This document shows, one piece after another, positions 32,095-61,643 of a stretch of 64,000 nt of DNA (its first letter is position 1; every line of letters begins with the position of its first letter). The notes below the pieces were generated by a model that had not been told where the DNA came from, made no database searches, and was given only the letters and a program-made list of their open reading frames with translations. The position numbers and the translations under genes were made by a program. Source of the stretch: Poseidonia sp. (GTDB lineage Archaea; Thermoplasmatota; Poseidoniia; Poseidoniales; Poseidoniaceae). The stretch lies in the NCBI GenBank assembly GCA_965661285.1, contig CBFIDD010000002.1, positions 32,001-96,000 on the forward strand, in the 5' to 3' direction.

Positions 32095-32589
32095 TCAAAT
32101 GTCGAAGACAACATCAGCGTACCAGCCCGGGCCTTCGAAATCAGGAACATCTTCCCAGCGACTGACAACCTGTTCGCCACCGCTGACTTCAGCTACAACA
32201 AGGTTGTGGGTTGTCACGGCTTTGATTTCTATTTCCCGTTCAATATGGTTGGCTTCAACCCATGAGACATGGGCCACAGCAAGGAGGCCGTGATCATCGT
32301 GTTCAATCCTTACAAGACCGTCAACATACCACTCCGCATGCACTTCTGCGCGATACAGAATCTCATCCAACCATGCCAAGTAGAGAAAATGCGGGTCTGT
32401 TGGATGGTGTTGCGAACGGACACGCCATTCTCCTGAGTGGCGCACATGTCGATTGATACTTTTGGCGGCGTTCTCGCTCATAAGGTAGGTTTGCACACCG
32501 TGAGCCGCTTCGCTTAACAAACTTGCAAGGTCTTTGGCGTACACACGCATGCCGATATCGGCGGTGGTCGGCCATAACCATGCACTCAT
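32095..32589 (-). CDS. Archease (RtcB tRNA ligase cofactor)
   Basis: TTADIGMRV, WLDEILY, EIKAVTTHNL, VVFDI terminus. Confidence 0.9.
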   Translation of the reverse strand: MSAWLWPTTADIGMRVYAKDLASLLSEAAHGVQTYLMSENAAKSINRHVRHSGEWRVRSQHHPTDPHFLYLAWLDEILYRAEVHAEWYVDGLVRIEHDDHGLLAVAHVSWVEANHIEREIEIKAVTTHNLVVAEVSGGEQVVSRWEDVPDFEGPGWYADVVFDI

Positions 32590-33665: not shown

Positions 33666-34628
33666 TCACCTCTGGTGTTCGTCTCTCAAATCTTCCATGA
33701 TTCGTTCGTGCTCTGCTTCGGAAATTCCCAACGTTCCACGCAGTGTTCGCAAGATGGCGTGTTCATCTGCCGTAATGACTCGGTCTTGCATGGCTGTGCG
33801 AACAGCGGCAGCGTAGGTGTGGTATTGTTCGGAAACTACCGGGGTGTTGCGTGCCCGCTCAAGGAGGGTGTTATGGGTAAACTGGTCAATGCCGAAATGA
33901 ACCCGAAAAGTGTTGAGCAGGTCAATTTCCTCTTGGACGATCTCACCATCATCCAGGGCTTGGAGGATCATATCGTAATACACCTCCTCTGGCGGGGGTA
34001 TTTTGAGCGCCTTTCGCGCTTCTGTGGACAAACGGCGCACACGTTCCGGGTGCATGCCGAGGAATTCAACGACCTCGTTGAGCAGGGACTGTTCATCTCT
34101 TGTGATCTTCCCATCCTCCCATGCCCTCGCAAACATTCTCTGAACCAGCTGCTCGCCGTACTGTGCATCGAGGGACGCTACGCCTTCCGGATTTGACACC
34201 GGAGAGACCAGGGCGGATGAATGGAAGTTCATGCCCTCATCAACATGCGACAACAGCTCAAGAATCGGTTGGGGAGATGTCCACAGCGATTGCAATTTGA
34301 CCGTCGTGTCGATATGCTGAACCTGCTTTGCTAGAATCCCGTCCTTGAGGGATTCTGCTCGCTCACGACCGATGGCTGTGAGCGTGTAGACTCGTTTTCG
34401 TTGCTTTCCACCGGGTATGTGCCGTTGGGCCACATCGAGCAGACCGTTTCTTTCCATTCGCTTCAGTGTACGAGGAATGTGTTTGCGTTGAACGTGGACT
34501 GCAGCCGATATCCCGGCTTGCGTCAAAATGGCGGGGGCTTCCCACCCGCCGCTAGGCAATTGTTGGTTGATGAGGTGGAGAAGCGTACGCTCCTCGGTGG
34601 TGAGTGTACCGAGAAACCCATCCACCAT
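33666..34628 (-). CDS. MarR-like winged-helix protein with three TerB-like repeats
   Basis: LTQAGISAAVHVQRKHIPRTLKRME..RVYTLTAIG; repeats DGKITRDE, DGEIVQEE, DRVITADE. Confidence 0.72.
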   Translation of the reverse strand: MVDGFLGTLTTEERTLLHLINQQLPSGGWEAPAILTQAGISAAVHVQRKHIPRTLKRMERNGLLDVAQRHIPGGKQRKRVYTLTAIGRERAESLKDGILAKQVQHIDTTVKLQSLWTSPQPILELLSHVDEGMNFHSSALVSPVSNPEGVASLDAQYGEQLVQRMFARAWEDGKITRDEQSLLNEVVEFLGMHPERVRRLSTEARKALKIPPPEEVYYDMILQALDDGEIVQEEIDLLNTFRVHFGIDQFTHNTLLERARNTPVVSEQYHTYAAAVRTAMQDRVITADEHAILRTLRGTLGISEAEHERIMEDLRDEHQR

Positions 34629-34709
34629 GATGCTGGGGCTGAGAAGGTAGCACATAGGACAATCGGTTTCGTGCGACGGAATCAAAAGCGCAGGAGCCGT
34701 GGGGAAACC

Positions 34710-35792
34710 ATGGCAGGTCGAGAGCGTAACTACACGCCTCGAGCACGCACGACGCGTCCGATTGGTGAGCCTCGAACGTCCAACACCCCTCCGGGAATAC
34801 CTCTCGACTCTCCCACAGAGAAGGATGGATTTTGGTTTATCAGTGAGCCACTTTCGCATCGCTTACACGAGAAAAGTGCACTCGGGCAGCAAACCAAAGG
34901 CGGTATTCTTCTCAGCCCCGAGGAGGTCATGTTTTGCCACTGGTATCGCCACGTACCACTCCCAGGAGGGTCGGCGTGGTTTCATGGTCAACTGATGGAA
35001 GATGACCAAATTGCCAAACGTATCATTGCACTGGATGTTTTGCGAAACGGCGGTGAACGCGTGGTGCCCGTCGTTCATTTGCAACATCGGTTTCCGTCGC
35101 TTCCCAAGAGCACGTGGGCCATTCGCTGGGAGCGGCACGAGCGTTGGATGTCACACGAAGGGTACAGTCAGGTTCGACTGCAACGCACGCACGACCAGCT
35201 GGATTGGAATGAACTCCGTACGTGGGTATTGGACGTTCAAGCCTCTGGCCATGTTGCTGAACTCTGTGTGATTGATGAGGAATTTGACACGACGATTTAC
35301 CATCTTTCCATGGTAGAGCCGTCTGGCTCGCATCACGTTCGGGAGGATTTGGACGAACACGCCCTTTCTCAATTGACCGATTCGTGTCGGCAAGCAACGT
35401 CCGTTGAGGGTGGATATTTTGTTTCACACGATGGTTCTTGGCCGCTACCTGCTATCGGCTTGCCCCATTTTTCCGGTCGCTATCTGCGTGGCGAAGAGTA
35501 CCGGGTGCTCATGGACAGTACAATGCCTGATGACGCTCTCTACCAGGAGTTGGTCGCCCTTGGTCTTCTGCTCCGTCCAGGTTTCAAGTACGGCTGTCGT
35601 TGGCGGGCCTATGAAGATGGCATTGACGTGGCTCACGCCCCTTGGTTGGTTCAACCCTTGAGTGAAGCACCGCAGAACTGGGAAGAGGTCTGCTTAGCGA
35701 TTCGGTTAGCTGAAGGCGTGAACAAGCAGTGGATTTGTGCCCTTGAAAATCAGGCCTCACATTCCTTCATCAACATCCGGCGTTACGGATAA
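34710..35792 (+). CDS. endA: tRNA-intron (splicing) endonuclease
   Basis: C-terminal LLRPGFKYGCRWRAY..HAPWLV..AEGVNK keeps the Tyr/His/Lys triad; N-terminal LSPEE unit. Confidence 0.85.
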   Translation: MAGRERNYTPRARTTRPIGEPRTSNTPPGIPLDSPTEKDGFWFISEPLSHRLHEKSALGQQTKGGILLSPEEVMFCHWYRHVPLPGGSAWFHGQLMEDDQIAKRIIALDVLRNGGERVVPVVHLQHRFPSLPKSTWAIRWERHERWMSHEGYSQVRLQRTHDQLDWNELRTWVLDVQASGHVAELCVIDEEFDTTIYHLSMVEPSGSHHVREDLDEHALSQLTDSCRQATSVEGGYFVSHDGSWPLPAIGLPHFSGRYLRGEEYRVLMDSTMPDDALYQELVALGLLLRPGFKYGCRWRAYEDGIDVAHAPWLVQPLSEAPQNWEEVCLAIRLAEGVNKQWICALENQASHSFINIRRYG

Positions 35793-55931: not shown

Positions 55932-56150
55932 GTGCCGCTGTGGGTCGATTGGGATCGACAACCGGTGAGTGTTCACAGCGACGACCAGGAGCAACTTGAG
56001 GGCCTGATTCGCCACCTGAAATCCCAGCATAACGTGCGCAAGCGCTCGTTGGTGATGGCTGACCGAGAGAACGGCGGTTTCCTCTTTTTTCTGTATCAGT
56101 CATGCGATCCGCGATGGATAGCGGCCTTTGTGAACAACGACGGAGCGTGA
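55932..56150 (+). CDS. Small hypothetical protein in ribosomal operon
   Basis: GTG 55932 behind GGTG; fills the gap between rps17e and trmJ. Confidence 0.6.
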   Translation: MPLWVDWDRQPVSVHSDDQEQLEGLIRHLKSQHNVRKRSLVMADRENGGFLFFLYQSCDPRWIAAFVNNDGA

Positions 56151-56154
56151 TTCC

Positions 56155-56979
56155 TTGGGTGAACGACAAGACCTCCCTCTGCCTCGTGGTCGGTTTGACA
56201 TCGTCGTTGTATTGGTTGGCGTCAGCCACCCGGGCAATCTCGGTGCCATTTGTAGAAGCATGCTGAATTTTGGTTTTGATGACCTGCGCCTTGTTGACCC
56301 AAAATGCTCACCCGATGATGGCGAAACCCGTGCACGGGCCAAACACGCCTCCAGGCTTTTGGACTGCGTCCAAACCTATGGCAGTATATCGGAAGCTGCT
56401 CATGATTGTTCCACGGTTATCGGCACCTCGGGGAAACGTGAGGTCGGGGAGAAGACATTGTTCCGGCACTACCTCTACCCTTGGGGCATGGTCGAACGAT
56501 TGAATGAGAGCCGTGGAAAAGCCGCTCTTGTGTTCGGGGAGGAAGGAACGGGACTCTCTGCTGACGATCTCGGTGAATGCGATTATTTTGTGACGCTGCC
56601 GACATGGGAAGGGTATCCTATTGCGAACCTCAGCCACGCCGTCAGTTCTTTGCTCTATGAAGTCCAGCGCCATCGTGTTCAGTCCAGTCAGGGTGAAGAT
56701 CCTGGCCTGCCGGATATTGTCCCCCTTGAGTCCACGCTGGACCCGGCCGTGCGCGGAGCGCTCATCAAAGCCATTGAGCAATTCGCTCAACAAATTTCCT
56801 CGAATGCCGAGCGCCGTCAATCCATTGAACAAACGCTGCGGAGAACGTTGCTGAAGGGGACGCCTTCCACGGAGGAATCAACCCGTCTCATCGGAGCGTT
56901 CGTTGAGGCAACATCAGCGATGGAATTCGCTTCGGGCGATGATGCGTGGATGAAAGACCATCGGCGTAAACTACGCTGA
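56155..56979 (+). CDS. trmJ: SPOUT tRNA 2'-O-methyltransferase, TrmJ family
   Basis: PGNLGAICRSMLNFG, ALVFGEEGTGLS, YPIANLSHAV. Confidence 0.88.
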   Translation: MGERQDLPLPRGRFDIVVVLVGVSHPGNLGAICRSMLNFGFDDLRLVDPKCSPDDGETRARAKHASRLLDCVQTYGSISEAAHDCSTVIGTSGKREVGEKTLFRHYLYPWGMVERLNESRGKAALVFGEEGTGLSADDLGECDYFVTLPTWEGYPIANLSHAVSSLLYEVQRHRVQSSQGEDPGLPDIVPLESTLDPAVRGALIKAIEQFAQQISSNAERRQSIEQTLRRTLLKGTPSTEESTRLIGAFVEATSAMEFASGDDAWMKDHRRKLR

Positions 56980-57429
56980 TCAAGGTCGCCATGTGGCGAC
57001 AGATTTCGGTGTTTCTCGACAGTGCATGGCCACAAGGCGAAGACGGTTGCCATAGGTTGAGGAGATGTGCGGCGCCACTGCATCAAACGCCCATTTCGCA
57101 AGATTTTCTGCCGTCGGGATGAAGGTTACAATCACGGTTCTGTGCCCTTCGCCCATGCACATGCACGCTTTTTTCCCTTCTTCGTCGCCTTCGTAGATGA
57201 CGAACGCATGGTCAATGACATCGTGAACATGTTCCATCAACACCTTGCTGATATCAGAGAAATCCATCAACATCCCTTCGTCAGAAACACCAGAGACCTC
57301 AACCACGTCGCCTTCGATTTCTGCTTCAAACCTGTAACGATGTCCGTGAAGGTGCCTGCATTTTGACTTATGATTTGGCACCCTGTGGCCCGTGTCGGTC
57401 TCTACATAGCGTCGTATTGTGGTCGTCAA
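56980..57429 (-). CDS. queD: 6-carboxy-5,6,7,8-tetrahydropterin synthase
   Basis: GHRV..KCRHLHGHRY, MDF, DH, PTAENLA, ETP; TTGA overlap with queC-msrB. Confidence 0.93.
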   Translation of the reverse strand: MTTTIRRYVETDTGHRVPNHKSKCRHLHGHRYRFEAEIEGDVVEVSGVSDEGMLMDFSDISKVLMEHVHDVIDHAFVIYEGDEEGKKACMCMGEGHRTVIVTFIPTAENLAKWAFDAVAPHISSTYGNRLRLVAMHCRETPKSVATWRP

Positions 57430-58586
57430 TGTTCTTCCTCCTCGTCCAATTCAAACGAAAGTGAAGCGGAGTTGATGCAATAGCGCTCTCCGCCATAAGC
57501 TGCAGGGCCATCGTTGAACACGTGTCCAAGATGGGCATCACAAACACTGCACCTAACCTCAACACGAACCATCCCGTGCGTATAGTCGTCAATTCTGACA
57601 ATATTGGCTTCCCTATGTTCAGTATGGAACGATGGCCAACCGCACCCGGAATCAAATTTCATGGTCGAGGTGAACAAAAGCGTTGAACAGCATATACATC
57701 GATAATCTCCCGCTCGTTTCTCATTCCAATATTCGCCCGTAAATGCACGCTCTGTTCCCGATTGTCTCGTGACATGGTACTGAAGGTCAGTAAGGCGCTC
57801 TTTGTAATCCTCCTCTCGATGACGTCGTTGCGTTTCCAGGGCATCCTCAAGCACCTCGCGCCAGGGTTTGATGTAGTCAATGGGGTCCTGTCTTCCGATG
57901 GCGTGAAAGGCCAATATTCGTTCAACATCCGAGCCTGTACCACCGTGGGAACGCCCATCTGCATCTGGTGCATAGGAGGTAAGCGTCCTCGAAAAGACCT
58001 CATCGAAATCAAGACCTAGGGCGGCGATCGATGTTTCAGCATCTCGCAGAATACCGATTTTATCGCTCTCCAGATAGGGCAGGGTGAACGAAACGCGCTC
58101 ACTCTCCCAATTGCCGATGGCAAAAGCATGCTCCAGGGCCGTGTAAAATTCAGGGCGACAGTCGGGATAGATGGCGTGGTCGCCGCTGTGAACGCCGAGA
58201 ACAATTTCCGCCGTTGTATCGTGTTTGGTGGCCTGTGAGAGTGCAACGCCGTACAAAAGGGAGGAGAACAGGGCATTCCGGTTTGGCACAATGGTTGCTT
58301 TCATGTTCTCCTCTTCATAGTGTCCTTCTGGGACATCTTCGCCACCCTCAAGAAGATGGCTCTCAAACAGAGCAGTGGCCGACGAGAGGTCGGCAACGTG
58401 ATGATTGACATTAAACCCGTTTTCGGCCAAATAGGCCACCAGTGATGTTGCTCTTTCCAGTTCAATCGCGTGTTTTTGCCCGTAATTGAAGGAAATGGCG
58501 GTCACGGTGTAGTTTTCCCGTAGTAAGTGAAGAAGCAAGGAGGAAGAATCCATTCCCCCACTTAAGGCCATGACTGCGAGTTTCAT
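57426..58586 (-). CDS. queC: Fusion: 7-cyano-7-deazaguanine synthase QueC (N) + peptide methionine-R-sulfoxide reductase MsrB (C)
   Basis: SGGMDS, YGQKH..E, VPNRN, YPDCRPEF; then GTERAF, CICC, KFDSGCGWPSF, RVEVRCSVCDAHLGHVFNDGP, RYCINS in one frame. Confidence 0.92.
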   Translation of the reverse strand: MKLAVMALSGGMDSSSLLLHLLRENYTVTAISFNYGQKHAIELERATSLVAYLAENGFNVNHHVADLSSATALFESHLLEGGEDVPEGHYEEENMKATIVPNRNALFSSLLYGVALSQATKHDTTAEIVLGVHSGDHAIYPDCRPEFYTALEHAFAIGNWESERVSFTLPYLESDKIGILRDAETSIAALGLDFDEVFSRTLTSYAPDADGRSHGGTGSDVERILAFHAIGRQDPIDYIKPWREVLEDALETQRRHREEDYKERLTDLQYHVTRQSGTERAFTGEYWNEKRAGDYRCICCSTLLFTSTMKFDSGCGWPSFHTEHREANIVRIDDYTHGMVRVEVRCSVCDAHLGHVFNDGPAAYGGERYCINSASLSFELDEEEEH

Positions 58587-58598
58587 TGTATCATCTCC

Positions 58599-59258
58599 TT
58601 ACAGTATGCCCATCCATTTGTGGGTTTGTAATGACAATCGCCACGCCGGATTGTCCTTTACGACGGCCTCGGTAAGAGCAAAACCCCGCCCGTTTTCCTC
58701 TACTGTGGCTCCTTCATCGTAGCAGGGTTGAAGGAAAAGATGTGAAAAACCGTCCTTAAGGTCATCATACATTGAGAGCGATTGTCCAACATAAACGCAT
58801 TTGAGTTCGTCTCCCACACGTTGTTTAATTGAGACATTGGGGTACATCTGGTCTTTCGGTGAAATGCAAATCCAATCCAATAACCCATCGGGGATGGCTA
58901 CAGTACCGTTTGATTCCACTGAGAGATGGTAATTTTGCAGTTTCAGCATTCGAGCCAACGGCCAGAGGTCGTTGAGCATGGGCTCACCTCCCGTGAAAAT
59001 GATGTTTTTGCACGGGTACTCGTTCACCTTCTCCATGATCTGTTGAGCCGTCATGGCTTCGTATTCATCGAAATTGGTATCGCACCACTCGCAGCGTAGA
59101 TTGCATTTGCCAAACCGAATGAACACATGGGGTATGCCGCTTCGGAACCCTTCGCCTTGAACGGAATGAAAAATCTCGACGATATTGTAAACATAGGAAG
59201 GGTCGCTCTCCCGCACCTCAAGGCGGGGCCGCAGCACAACTTCACTCCTCTCCGGCAC
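58599..59258 (-). CDS. queE: 7-carboxy-7-deazaguanine synthase (radical SAM)
   Basis: EIFHSVQGEG, CNLRCEWCDT, TGGEP, ESNG, SPK, FLQP, WRLSLQTHK. Confidence 0.95.
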   Translation of the reverse strand: MPERSEVVLRPRLEVRESDPSYVYNIVEIFHSVQGEGFRSGIPHVFIRFGKCNLRCEWCDTNFDEYEAMTAQQIMEKVNEYPCKNIIFTGGEPMLNDLWPLARMLKLQNYHLSVESNGTVAIPDGLLDWICISPKDQMYPNVSIKQRVGDELKCVYVGQSLSMYDDLKDGFSHLFLQPCYDEGATVEENGRGFALTEAVVKDNPAWRLSLQTHKWMGIL

Positions 59259-59267
59259 GTTCTCACC

Positions 59268-59843
59268 TCAAAGGGGCGGTTGGTGAATCAATTGCATGAG
59301 CTCTTGTCGAGCTTCGGGGCGTTCAAAGAAGACACCGCGCATCGCAGATGTGGTCATAACAGCCTGTTGCTTTGCCACGCCGCGACATTGCATGCATCCG
59401 TGCGAAGCCTCGAGGATGACGGCTGCACCAAGGGGTTCCAGTTCGCGTTCGAGGTCGTCAGCGATGCCCTTCGTGATTCGTTCCTGATTTTGCAGTCGCC
59501 TGGCGTGCAATTCGAGGATTCGGGCCAATTTGCTAATGCCAACGATCCGCTCAACAGGTATGTAGGCAACGTGAGCGCGCCCTCGGAACGGCTGGAGATG
59601 GTGTTCGCAGGTTGAAGTGAATTCGATGTTGCGAAGCAAGACGATGCCATCATACCCCTCGCCGTTGAAGGTGGCTTGCAGAAGTTCACTGGCGTCCATG
59701 TCGTAGCCAGCGAATATCTCGCTCCACGACTCCACCACTCGCTTAGGGGTGTTTTTCAACCCTTCACGCTCGACATTGTCCGTGCCTTCGATGTAGCCCA
59801 ACAGCACGCGTACTGCCTCATGCGCTTCGTCTTCTGTTACCAT
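59268..59843 (-). CDS. folE: GTP cyclohydrolase I (type IA)
   Basis: REGLKNTPKRV, STCEHHLQPF, GISKLAR, RLQNQER, HGCMQCRG; GGAGGA SD before ATG 59843. Confidence 0.96.
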   Translation of the reverse strand: MVTEDEAHEAVRVLLGYIEGTDNVEREGLKNTPKRVVESWSEIFAGYDMDASELLQATFNGEGYDGIVLLRNIEFTSTCEHHLQPFRGRAHVAYIPVERIVGISKLARILELHARRLQNQERITKGIADDLERELEPLGAAVILEASHGCMQCRGVAKQQAVMTTSAMRGVFFERPEARQELMQLIHQPPL

Positions 59844-59844
59844 C

Positions 59845-60012
59845 TCAAATCCTCCTCCCGTGCATCTTGTCAATGGTGTCCAACTGGTCCAACAACTTTC
59901 GACACGCCGTTCGAATGGCATCTGCAAGACTGACAAACTTGTGGTCATCACCGACATGCAGTTTGAGGTCGTCGACCAATTCTTGTGGCATATCAAGTGA
60001 AACCTTGGGCAT
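59845..60012 (-). CDS. Unannotated 55-aa ribbon-helix-helix (CopG/Arc/MetJ-like) regulator
   Basis: Hand translation MPKVSLDMPQELVDDLKLHVGDDHKFVSLADAIRTACRKLLDQLDTIDKMHGRRI*; alternating beta strand, helix, S-x-x-D-A-I-R-x-A helix; stop lies 1 nt before the folE ATG. Confidence 0.82.
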   Translation of the reverse strand: MPKVSLDMPQELVDDLKLHVGDDHKFVSLADAIRTACRKLLDQLDTIDKMHGRRI

Positions 60013-60033
60013 GATGAGCGCTCACTGAGCATT

Positions 60034-60070
60034 GGATATAAGTATTCTTATAGTAATACTATAGGAATAC
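60034..60070. promoter_or_regulatory. TATA box (minus strand TTATAT 60041-60036) plus 14-bp inverted repeat, putative operator
   Basis: GTATTCTTATAGTA-A-TACTATAGGAATAC (60042-60070), 13/14 symmetric and very AT-rich. Confidence 0.72.
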
Positions 60071-60143
60071 CTCAGTCATTTTTCATGTGCTATGTTCACG
60101 GCATGGGCCAATGTTCAAAGGATACCTCGGCAGAAGGCGAACC

Positions 60144-61643
60144 ATGCAGACGGGAGTCACCAAGGACCATGTAGCCCTTCTTCACGAAATCCGTTCCAGT
60201 GTTGGGGACATCACCACACCCGGTCTCCACGACGAAGAGATTCGAGCCTTCCTCGCCCACGACCCCACGCTCGGTCAAGCCATTGACGAGGCATCGAAGC
60301 GCTTTCAAGCGATGGCGCAGGAATATCCCGACTTGTACTTGGATTCCAACGAATTGGAACTGATCACCAAACTCCAAGAAGGATTTGTCAATTTTTACAA
60401 CCCCGCAACGATCAATCCCTACATCGCCCTCGCGGCCCGAGGCCCATGGATCGTCTCCTCCCACGGCGCTGTTATCCACGACAACGGCGGCTACGGTATG
60501 TTGGGGGCCGGACACGGACCAACCGATGTTATTCGGTCCATGTCGGATAACTGGGTGATGGCCAATGTCATGACGGCCTCGTTTTCACAAAAGCGATTGG
60601 AAGAACGTCTTCGAGCCGAACTCGGCCACACACGCGGCTCGTGTCCTTTTGACAAGTTTATCTGCATGAACAGCGGTTCTGAATCGGTTACTGTAAGTCT
60701 GCGAATTGCTGACGTCAATGCGAAACTGATGACGCAGAAAGGCGGCAAACACGAAGGTAAGGACATCAAAATCATGGCTGTCGAGAAAGGTTTCCACGGC
60801 CGAACCGACCGTCCAGCACAAATGTCCCACTCCTGCAAAGGAAAGTATGACAAACACTTGGCGAGCTTCCAAAATCGGGACAACCTCATCCTTGTGCCCG
60901 CAAACGATGTTGAAGCGCTTCAACACGCGTTCACGCAGGCTGAACAGGACAACGTGTTCATTGAACTCCTCGCCATTGAACCCGTGCAAGGCGAAGGCAA
61001 TCCAGGCCAGTGCGTCTCCCGTGAATTTTACGATGCAGCCCGCCGTCTGACCTTGGAACATGACAGCATGCTTCTCGTCGATTCTATTCAAGCCGGTATT
61101 CGCGGCCAAGGCACGCTTTCTGTGGTTGACTACGCTGGGTTTCAGGATTGCGAGGCCCCAGATCTTGAGACATGGTCGAAAGCCATGAATGCAGGACAGT
61201 ATCCTCTCTCTGTGCTCGGGATGAACGAACGGGCATCGAACCTCTACGTCACGGGCATTTACGGAAACACGATGACGACAAACCCGCGAGCGCTTGAAAC
61301 GGCTGTTGCTGTTTTGGACGGCATCACACCTGAGTTGCGGCAAAATATACGAGACCGTGGCGAAGAGTTTGTTGAGAAATTCTCGGCACTCCAACAAGAA
61401 TTCCCTCATGTGATCACAAAAGTTCAGGGAACAGGATTACTCTGCAGCGCCGAACTGGAACCCACACAATTCCCTGTGGTCGGTATGGAGGCCGTAGAAC
61501 CCTGGTGCAGGCGGAGAGGCCTCGGTGTGATTCATGGAGGAGAAAATGCCCTTCGTTTCACGCCCCACTTCAACATCACATCCAAAGAGATCGACCTCCT
61601 TGTGGACATCGTCCGTGAGGCCATCATTGCATTTGGTGCCTAG
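60144..61643 (+). CDS. Class III PLP aminotransferase with N-terminal extension
   Basis: NSGSES, GFHGRT, EPVQGEG, DSIQAG, SKAMNAG, GNTM. Confidence 0.9.
   Translation: MQTGVTKDHVALLHEIRSSVGDITTPGLHDEEIRAFLAHDPTLGQAIDEASKRFQAMAQEYPDLYLDSNELELITKLQEGFVNFYNPATINPYIALAARGPWIVSSHGAVIHDNGGYGMLGAGHGPTDVIRSMSDNWVMANVMTASFSQKRLEERLRAELGHTRGSCPFDKFICMNSGSESVTVSLRIADVNAKLMTQKGGKHEGKDIKIMAVEKGFHGRTDRPAQMSHSCKGKYDKHLASFQNRDNLILVPANDVEALQHAFTQAEQDNVFIELLAIEPVQGEGNPGQCVSREFYDAARRLTLEHDSMLLVDSIQAGIRGQGTLSVVDYAGFQDCEAPDLETWSKAMNAGQYPLSVLGMNERASNLYVTGIYGNTMTTNPRALETAVAVLDGITPELRQNIRDRGEEFVEKFSALQQEFPHVITKVQGTGLLCSAELEPTQFPVVGMEAVEPWCRRRGLGVIHGGENALRFTPHFNITSKEIDLLVDIVREAIIAFGA

Follow-up and report, generated by a model that had tools for sequence, protein, structure and literature searches.

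This study concerns a 64,000-nucleotide (nt) stretch of Poseidonia sp. DNA (contig CBFIDD010000002.1, positions 32,001 to 96,000; hereafter the window, in whose own numbering positions are given) and a gene in it for a 55-amino-acid (aa) ribbon-helix-helix (RHH) protein, which heads the preQ0 operon folE-queE-queC-queD. PreQ0 is 7-cyano-7-deazaguanine, from which the tRNA modification archaeosine is made. The protein is probably a dedicated, autoregulating repressor of the operon that it heads, and would act through three phased GTAWTAC boxes conserved directly upstream of the TATA-like box. According to the accessible text of PMC5699537, GTP is converted to preQ0 via FolE, QueD, QueE, and QueC, with ArcTGT acting next in archaea. 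No described regulator of archaeal preQ0/archaeosine genes was found in the literature searched, a search outside which most subscription journals lay.

The RHH gene, its promoter, and its haloarchaeal orthologs

The RHH gene lies on the minus strand (59845..60012); its ATG is the first start codon 3' of an in-frame stop, a TGA 12 nt before it. An earlier note on the window, made from the letters alone, had presented it as a hidden open reading frame (ORF) coupled to folE. The ORF was indeed absent from the ORF track behind that note, but the family is already annotated as CopG, RHH, or Arc/MetJ-type in public records. Protein searches found 1364 relatives at E<=0.01; the best 120 of these are 80-95% identical and 49-91 aa long, mostly 55-60 aa, and the named ones among these 120 are CopG family, ribbon-helix-helix, or Arc/MetJ-type regulators from Poseidoniales (Marine Group II). 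The ESM Atlas label is likewise 'CopG family'. The family is narrow, with 108 of the 50%-identity representatives matched at E<=0.001 in an exhaustive search; tblastn against a phage collection gave no match and no sign of viral copies there. Across 80 sequences, variation by codon position is 0.19/0.07/0.48, concentrated at third positions, and synonymous (pS) and nonsynonymous (pN) variation over codons 2-53 amounts to 0.88 and 0.15, respectively (pN/pS 0.17). This indicates protein coding under purifying selection; by the measure of its variation, the 55-aa ORF is a real gene.

The coupling to folE was borne out. The RHH stop codon (TGA, 59847-59845) is followed by one base and then by the folE ATG at 59843. 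When the in-frame start nearest to the stop is taken, the gap from RHH stop to folE start is -8 to +5 nt in 81/81 sequences, with purine-rich runs preceding. The His-Gly-Arg-Arg codons CAC GGG AGG AGG (59848-59859, minus strand) double as a GGAGG ribosome-binding run for folE (GGAGGAGG), and purine runs like it are present in nearly all relatives. At the level of sequence, the 1-nt gap and the internal GGAGG establish that folE is translationally coupled to the RHH gene. The RHGR tail of the protein is conserved, and part of this conservation may come from the ribosome-binding run in the same bases.

Structure prediction supports the RHH fold that had been proposed for the protein. The AlphaFold2 model (55-row alignment; mean predicted local distance difference test score, pLDDT, 91.5) has residues 1-9 extended, a helix at 10-17, an 11-residue loop, and a helix at 29-50, which is the strand-helix-helix order of the RHH superfamily. 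In the loop, H19 and G21 are invariant and K25 and F26 nearly so. A Foldseek search of the PDB returned 11 matches, seven of them RHH proteins (NikR, ParD, PrpA, VapB) with template modeling (TM) scores of 0.53-0.66 and NikR on top; against the BFVD viral models, there was no match at E<=0.001 and no aCcr1-like virus protein ranked first. A homodimer model scored 0.44, as opposed to 0.00 for the best of three controls, with at least 92% contact agreement between runs and a partner pLDDT of at least 72. Its contacts 4:5, 5:5, and 6:4 describe an antiparallel ribbon, joined by a helix-2 core. The mark applied to this score is reached by 20/30 proteins solved as one-chain pairs and by 1/23 solved as single chains, counts that hold only roughly for a run that used its own alignment; the modeled pass shows likeness to RHH dimers, which are solved, not proof.

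The profile searches point the same way. The three best NCBIfam matches of the window protein are all RHH models, each weak: CdrS (0.0068), NikR (0.028), and YlcI/YnfO (0.036). Among 26 diverse relatives, the CdrS model matches 17 (best 4.9e-9), the aCcr1 model nine (best 2.6e-6), and the NikR model nine. Pfam RHH_1 (PF01402) matches 9/26 of these relatives (best 3.5e-6), with no match to the window protein itself at E<=1; PF23434 (DUF7120) matches 4/26 (best 0.0027), and the window protein is again without a match. Matches of the window protein to the Pfam families DUF2767, GPIID_WHD, and FDX-ACB were dismissed as being at chance level.

A scan of species-representative genomes found 520 with a relative, and the best 80 loci were examined. 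All are from Poseidoniales, with record titles naming both Poseidoniaceae and Thalassarchaeaceae. In 80/80 loci, the order RHH-folE-queE-queC-queD is kept, colinear and on one strand (the later genes where the contig allows), so the gene is conserved upstream of folE. Compared with the window, the RHH protein has a median identity of 81%, FolE of 75%, QueE of 69%, QueC-MsrB of 63%, and QueD of 77%. A divergent aminotransferase gene is present in 44/80 loci; elsewhere, an ABC-2 permease gene ends right at the RHH promoter, and the boxes are retained. In four Thalassarchaeaceae-type loci (L021, L032, L059, L065), the permease TAA stop falls within box 1 (...TCGTAATCGCATAGTATTAC), approximately 50-60 nt before the RHH ATG. 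Where the locus is of the Poseidoniaceae type, the aminotransferase gene is inserted divergently between permease and RHH genes.

At the promoter, the earlier note had placed a TTATAT box 24-29 nt upstream of the RHH ATG and a 13/14 inverted repeat directly upstream of that box. Both are there (TTATAT at 60041..60036, minus strand; the repeat at 60042-60070). The repeat arms, 60042-60055 and 60057-60070, are 14 nt long, 13/14 (93%) complementary, and separated by 1 nt; the repeat is the sole one of its quality in the window (14-nt arms, at most one mismatch, loop of at most 5 nt), and 2/30 dinucleotide shuffles held one such repeat (mean 0.07). The conserved unit is a different one. In 80 aligned promoters (79 loci plus the window; L029 was omitted for Ns), three boxes, RTAWTAC, GTAWTAC, and (C/G)(G/T)AATAC, recur with an 11-bp period, and the third touches a TTATA-type, T/A-rich consensus that directly follows it. 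The third base of each box is an invariant A, including that of box 3 in 80/80 promoters, and the fifth base is nearly always T. The counts are R 74/80, T 73/80, A 80/80, W 80/80, and T 79/80 for box 1, and G 63/80, T 77/80, A 80/80, W 80/80, T 78/80, A 66/80, and C 62/80 for box 2, which in the window reads TAGTATTACT. The pooled consensus of 73 Poseidoniales arrays is AGTAATACT, the central position being A or T at 50% each. The end of box 3 lies 24-30 nt before the ATG in 73/80 promoters. The two inner positions of each spacer carry 0.1-0.3 bits. Because the spacers that form the long palindrome are not kept in relatives, it is not the conserved unit; as the alignment indicates, that unit is the phased GTAWTAC box, and the spacers of the window happen to match. 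Thus, a conserved element was correctly located, but it consists of three boxes and not of 14-nt arms.

These boxes are largely specific to the RHH promoter. The scans covered +/-8 kb around each RHH gene and the one 64-kb window. A triple-box score of at least 16/21 was reached by 70/79 promoters and by 5/3950 shuffles. Double boxes with at most two mismatches occurred 107 times at RHH promoters versus 11 times elsewhere in 1.10 Mb, all 11 with two mismatches; those at L038 3593, L063 2274, and L076 2024 (GTAATACYCAAGT...) were rejected as operators, being a Kae1-like coding motif (SGGNTQVI). The combination of box 3 and TATA box occurred 34 times at RHH promoters versus five times elsewhere in 1.10 Mb, where TATA-like sites number 857. 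The window's remaining exact GTAWTAC boxes (15562, 33975, 44485) fall within ORFs and were dismissed. Toward the aminotransferase gene, the sequence next to the boxes showed a mild A/T rise 10-12 nt from box 1 and no strongly conserved element.

The protein and its boxes also occur in haloarchaea. P0184, a distant representative, is a member of a family of RHH proteins that are 56-87 aa long in haloarchaea; many of them carry PF23434 (DUF7120) and PF01402 in precomputed annotation, and none is named CdrS. A tblastn search of plasmids with P0184 found four haloarchaeal records (L081-L084), which constitute the haloarchaeal evidence. The RHH gene precedes queD-queE-queC in Halococcus dombrowskii, follows it in Haloplanus sp., and lies one gene beyond it in Halorubrum ezzemoulense; in Halorubrum sp. 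BOL3-1, its immediate upstream neighbors are an ISH3 element and a queC remnant. The plasmid RHH proteins are 60-66% identical to that of the window over 53 ungapped residues, whereas QueE, QueC, and QueD are 29-39% identical to their window counterparts. This disparity across classes may reflect extreme conservation or a transfer. ISH3 has damaged some of the plasmid que clusters (L081 5561-7705; L082 2241-3901): queC is split in Halococcus, and Halorubrum BOL3-1 is left with its queC remnant beside the RHH gene and has lost the promoter boxes.

A double-box matrix built solely from the 73 Poseidoniales arrays was scanned over these four loci. In both L081 and L083, its top two matches lie at queD ATG-14 (16.2 and 14.5 bits) and at RHH ATG-24/-25 (15.8 and 13.0 bits), with next-best scores of approximately 2-3 bits. 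In L084, the RHH site ranked first (11.1 bits) and the queD site third (7.4 bits). Of 200 trials with column-shuffled matrices, 0-6 reached these scores. As far as sequence goes, the protein, its box, and the que genes are thus shown to travel together in two archaeal classes.

Proposed regulation and competing explanations

To judge from its spacing, the operon would be transcribed from TTATAT as a leaderless mRNA, with the RHH protein translated first and folE translation coupled to it. RHH homodimers are expected to bind the three palindromic GTAWTAC boxes; since these are 11 bp apart, which is one helical turn, up to three dimers could line up along the same face of the DNA. Because box 3 abuts the TATA box, in the place of the recognition element for transcription factor B (TFB), a full array should hinder TFB and the TATA-binding protein (TBP) and repress the operon. 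Such negative autoregulation may keep the levels of the preQ0 enzymes steady. Least certain is the sign of the effect: the boxes are found upstream of the TATA box in this case but over the start region in haloarchaea. The earlier note had proposed a protein-based switch on preQ0 synthesis. An RHH gene that heads the operon and has a conserved promoter element is consistent with the protein-based part; the ligand-responsive part found no support, and the protein has no sensor domain. A co-repressor is possible but unsupported.

Several observations weigh against a dedicated repressor. The window protein scores above no curated Pfam or NCBIfam threshold, no Foldseek match to the PDB reached E<=0.001, and phmmer and profile searches of PDB sequences gave nothing useful. 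Seven of the 80 promoters were parsed out of register. The loci seen were the best 80 of 520, and with box scans confined to the RHH neighborhoods and the window, other genomic targets are possible. In the insertion-damaged L082, the RHH gene is kept with no box match at its promoter (-4.3 bits). The haloarchaeal boxes sit after the TATA box and before the ATG, a geometry not conserved relative to Poseidoniales. In Poseidoniales, the boxes occupy a region, upstream of the TATA box, that archaeal activators use for binding as well, and CdrS sites at -41 to -110 are read as activating in the accessible part of PMC8406309.

The strongest alternative is that the RHH protein is a global cell-cycle regulator of the CdrS/aCcr1 type with many targets, its place before folE being incidental or one of many promoters. 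This is consistent with the matches of the CdrS model to 17/26 family members (best 4.9e-9) and of the aCcr1 model to 9/26 (best 2.6e-6), with the family alignment to SIRV2 ORF59b by hhalign (probability 75%, E 2.5e-5), and with a box core equal to the aCcr1 box in the accessible text of PMC9976892 and PMC9976878. The RHH protein is also better conserved (median 81%) than the enzymes (63-77%), and the box scans span RHH neighborhoods, not whole genomes. However, the window protein scores far below the curated cut-offs (16.4 versus 100 bits for CdrS), BLASTP to gp21 finds nothing, and the haloarchaeal orthologs form a separate family (PF23434/PF01402) in which none is named CdrS. Synteny is with que, not ftsZ, genes in 80/80 Poseidoniales loci and 4/4 haloarchaeal plasmid loci; no second box array appeared in the 1.10 Mb scanned, and the three other exact boxes of the window are all inside ORFs. 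A global role is thus judged unlikely, if worth keeping in mind.

A second possibility, also rated low, is that the RHH protein recruits TFB/TBP to a weak promoter and so activates the operon, in a positive autoregulation. An RHH protein whose gene comes first in its own operon usually acts as a repressor, which counts against this possibility. In its favor, the box positions of about -30 to -58, upstream of the TATA box, fall in the zone where CdrS sites have been read as activating (the accessible part of PMC8406309), and box 3 replaces the canonical TFB element. The haloarchaeal boxes, however, lie over the start region (queD ATG-14, RHH ATG-24), which is the repressor position as described for aCcr1 in the available text of PMC9976878.

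It is very improbable that the boxes serve as ordinary promoter elements or as a site for some other factor and that the small protein does something else, for example as a FolE partner or an antitoxin. The tight translational coupling to folE would suit such a role, some public records call relatives ParD antitoxins, and the binding of the RHH protein to the boxes is itself inferred. Against this, folE and not a toxin gene comes next in 80/80 loci, box 3 with the TATA box is almost unique to the RHH promoter (34 versus 5), boxes and protein co-occur in two archaeal classes, and an RHH-type fold and dimer are predicted. An RNA element (a riboswitch or hairpin) controlling the que genes, similar to the bacterial preQ1 riboswitches, can be set aside almost entirely: the inverted repeat could pair with itself, but positions 56000-61000 have no Rfam match at E<=1 on either strand, the repeat is upstream of the TATA box and so outside the inferred transcript, and the boxes are conserved while the stem-forming spacers are not.

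The preQ0 operon and neighboring genes

The features of the locus are listed in the table. The GTP cyclohydrolase of the window is a type I FolE, unlike the FolE2 that most archaea use according to the accessible text of PMC5699537. The queD gene overlaps the queC-msrB stop by 4 nt. The MsrB part is present in 60/80 related loci and absent in nine, with 11 cut by contig ends; fused and adjacent forms were not distinguished in this count. The start of the divergent aminotransferase gene is uncertain (GTG 60087, ATG 60111, or ATG 60144). Close relatives keep the sequence ATGTTCAAAGG at start 60111, and its distance to box 1 is 40-41 nt in each of the four cases counted (the window, L001, L003, and L004). 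On the other side of the operon, a gene for a SpoU-type RNA methyltransferase (56155-56979, plus strand) converges on queD, and the two stop codons abut at 56979/56980. The window also encodes a tRNA-intron endonuclease (34401-35792) and an archease (32095-32589).

Table. Features of the RHH-folE-que locus in window coordinates (nt)
Feature	Position	Strand	Evidence or remark
55-aa RHH gene, first of the operon	59845..60012	minus	ORF list with translation, MPKVSLDMPQELVDDLKLHVGDDHKFVSLADAIRTACRKLLDQLDTIDKMHGRRI
GGAGGAGG, Shine-Dalgarno-like run for folE	59851..59858	minus	inside the last RHH codons
TTATAT, TATA-box-like	60036..60041	minus	24-29 nt before the RHH ATG; 23 nt between its end and that ATG
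Box 3, AGAATAC	60042..60048	minus	abuts the TATA box, where the TFB-recognition element would lie
Box 2, GTATTAC (with flank AGTATTA)	60053..60059	minus	80-promoter alignment
Box 1, GTATTCC	60064..60070	minus	11 bp from box 2
Inverted repeat made up of boxes 3, 2, and 1 with a spacer between neighbors	60042..60070	.	repeat search
folE, type I GTP cyclohydrolase I	59268..59843	minus	PF01227 6.7e-64; TIGR00063 201.9 bits (cut-off 181.6)
queE, 7-carboxy-7-deazaguanine synthase	58599..59258	minus	Radical_SAM 1.1e-11; TIGR04508 4.2e-38, below curated cut-off; start codon uncertain
queC-msrB fusion	57426..58586	minus	QueC 2.7e-38, residues 4-227; SelR 5.7e-49, residues 265-379
queD, 6-carboxytetrahydropterin synthase	56980..57429	minus	PTPS 2e-26; TIGR03367 2.6e-23, slightly below cut-off
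Class-III aminotransferase, divergent	60111..61643	plus	PF00202 3.9e-42

Wider meaning and comparison with known systems

In Marine Group II, whose archaea are abundant and uncultured, next to nothing is known of how genes are regulated. The locus described here brings together, as a complete and testable triple, a candidate regulator, three phased boxes as its putative operator, and the preQ0 operon as its regulon. Haloarchaea, which are genetically tractable, have this triple as well, so that it can be tested at the bench without culturing Poseidoniales.

The closest published parallel is aCcr1 of the Sulfolobales (SiRe_0197/SiL_0190; viral SIRV2 gp21). The accessible text of PMC9976892 and PMC9976878 describes a 58-aa RHH protein that binds AGTATTA (seed GTATTA) in core promoters and represses cdvA; another notation given for the motif is A(T/G)G(A)TA(G)A(T/G)TACN, and the binding to AGTATTA/GTAATAC-type boxes comes from electrophoretic mobility shift assays (EMSA) and chromatin immunoprecipitation sequencing (ChIP-seq). 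Its targets, in the same text, include the operon of the queuine/archaeosine tRNA-ribosyltransferase: SiRe_0018/0019 fall by 2.8-2.9 log2, and the SiL_0019 promoter was bound in EMSA. Similar to the window protein, aCcr1 is a stand-alone RHH protein (55-59 aa for the two) and, as published, represses through short palindromic boxes with a GTATTA/GTAATAC core that lie in core promoters, often in two copies. The published AGTATTA is contained exactly in box 2 of the window, and binding of this box by the window protein is predicted.

The likeness is at the level of the superfamily. SIRV2 ORF59b, the 21st coding sequence (59 aa), was taken to be gp21 of the aCcr1 clade; hhalign gave it 21% identity, at the probability and E value stated above, BLASTP of the window protein against gp21 gave nothing, and the aCcr1 model NF053762 had no match to the window protein at E<=1. 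The window RHH gene also differs in being integrated into a biosynthetic operon and in having three boxes at 11-bp spacing upstream of the TATA box. Among the 49 ORFs of the window, no FtsZ/tubulin domain was found (Pfam, E<=1e-5), and no cell-division gene is nearby, unlike the case of aCcr1. The box shared with aCcr1 hints at how DNA specificity persists across very distant RHH proteins.

These parallels suggest, as a speculation to which we give little credence, an ancient archaeal link that ties the 7-deazaguanine (archaeosine) pathway to one lineage of tiny RHH proteins with GTAWTAC/GTATTA boxes as their sites. The link is suggested because aCcr1, in the text cited, binds and represses the queuine/archaeosine tRNA-ribosyltransferase operon alongside cdvA, because the ortholog in Halobacteria neighbors queDEC and the promoters of queD and of the RHH gene carry boxes there, and because the Poseidoniales gene is integrated into the folE-queE-queC-queD operon. 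If the link were true, the supply of archaeosine/preQ0 would be tied to a cell-cycle RHH circuit, and the conservation of the RHH protein between classes (60-66%, versus 29-39% for the enzymes) would reflect a role wider than the housekeeping of one operon.

CdrS, which is co-transcribed with ftsZ2 in haloarchaea, is likewise a small, stand-alone archaeal RHH protein encoded first in its (two-gene) operon, and its model is the best NCBIfam match of the window protein. Membership in the CdrS family (NF058555) was rejected: the score is 16.4 against a 100-bit cut-off, and folE, not ftsZ2, is the next gene in the window and in 80/80 loci. Halobacteria also hold a separate ortholog, 60-66% identical to the window protein, beside que genes. 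A palindromic CdrS motif was found by ChIP-seq (accessible text of PMC8406309 and PMC7439475), and CdrS sites at -41 to -110 are read as activating (accessible part of PMC8406309).

Among the classical RHH repressors, NikR is both the top structural match and an NCBIfam match of the window protein. In Arc, CopG, MetJ, the NikR N-domain, and omega, a dimeric beta-ribbon reads the major groove, several dimers assemble on phased repeats, and autoregulation is found. The present case differs in its archaeal promoter with TATA and TFB elements, in the 11-residue interhelix loop with H19, G21, K25, and F26, and in the lack of a metal- or ligand-binding domain in the window protein. A type II antitoxin of the ParD/CopG kind was rejected, as folE and no toxin gene lies downstream in 80/80 loci. 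Lastly, the bacterial preQ1 riboswitches resemble this system as functional analogs only, in that pathway-specific control heads the que genes; they consist of RNA, whereas a protein is proposed here, and the window locus has no Rfam match. If the proposed repression is true, the RHH protein would play, as a protein, the part that the preQ1 riboswitch plays in bacteria.

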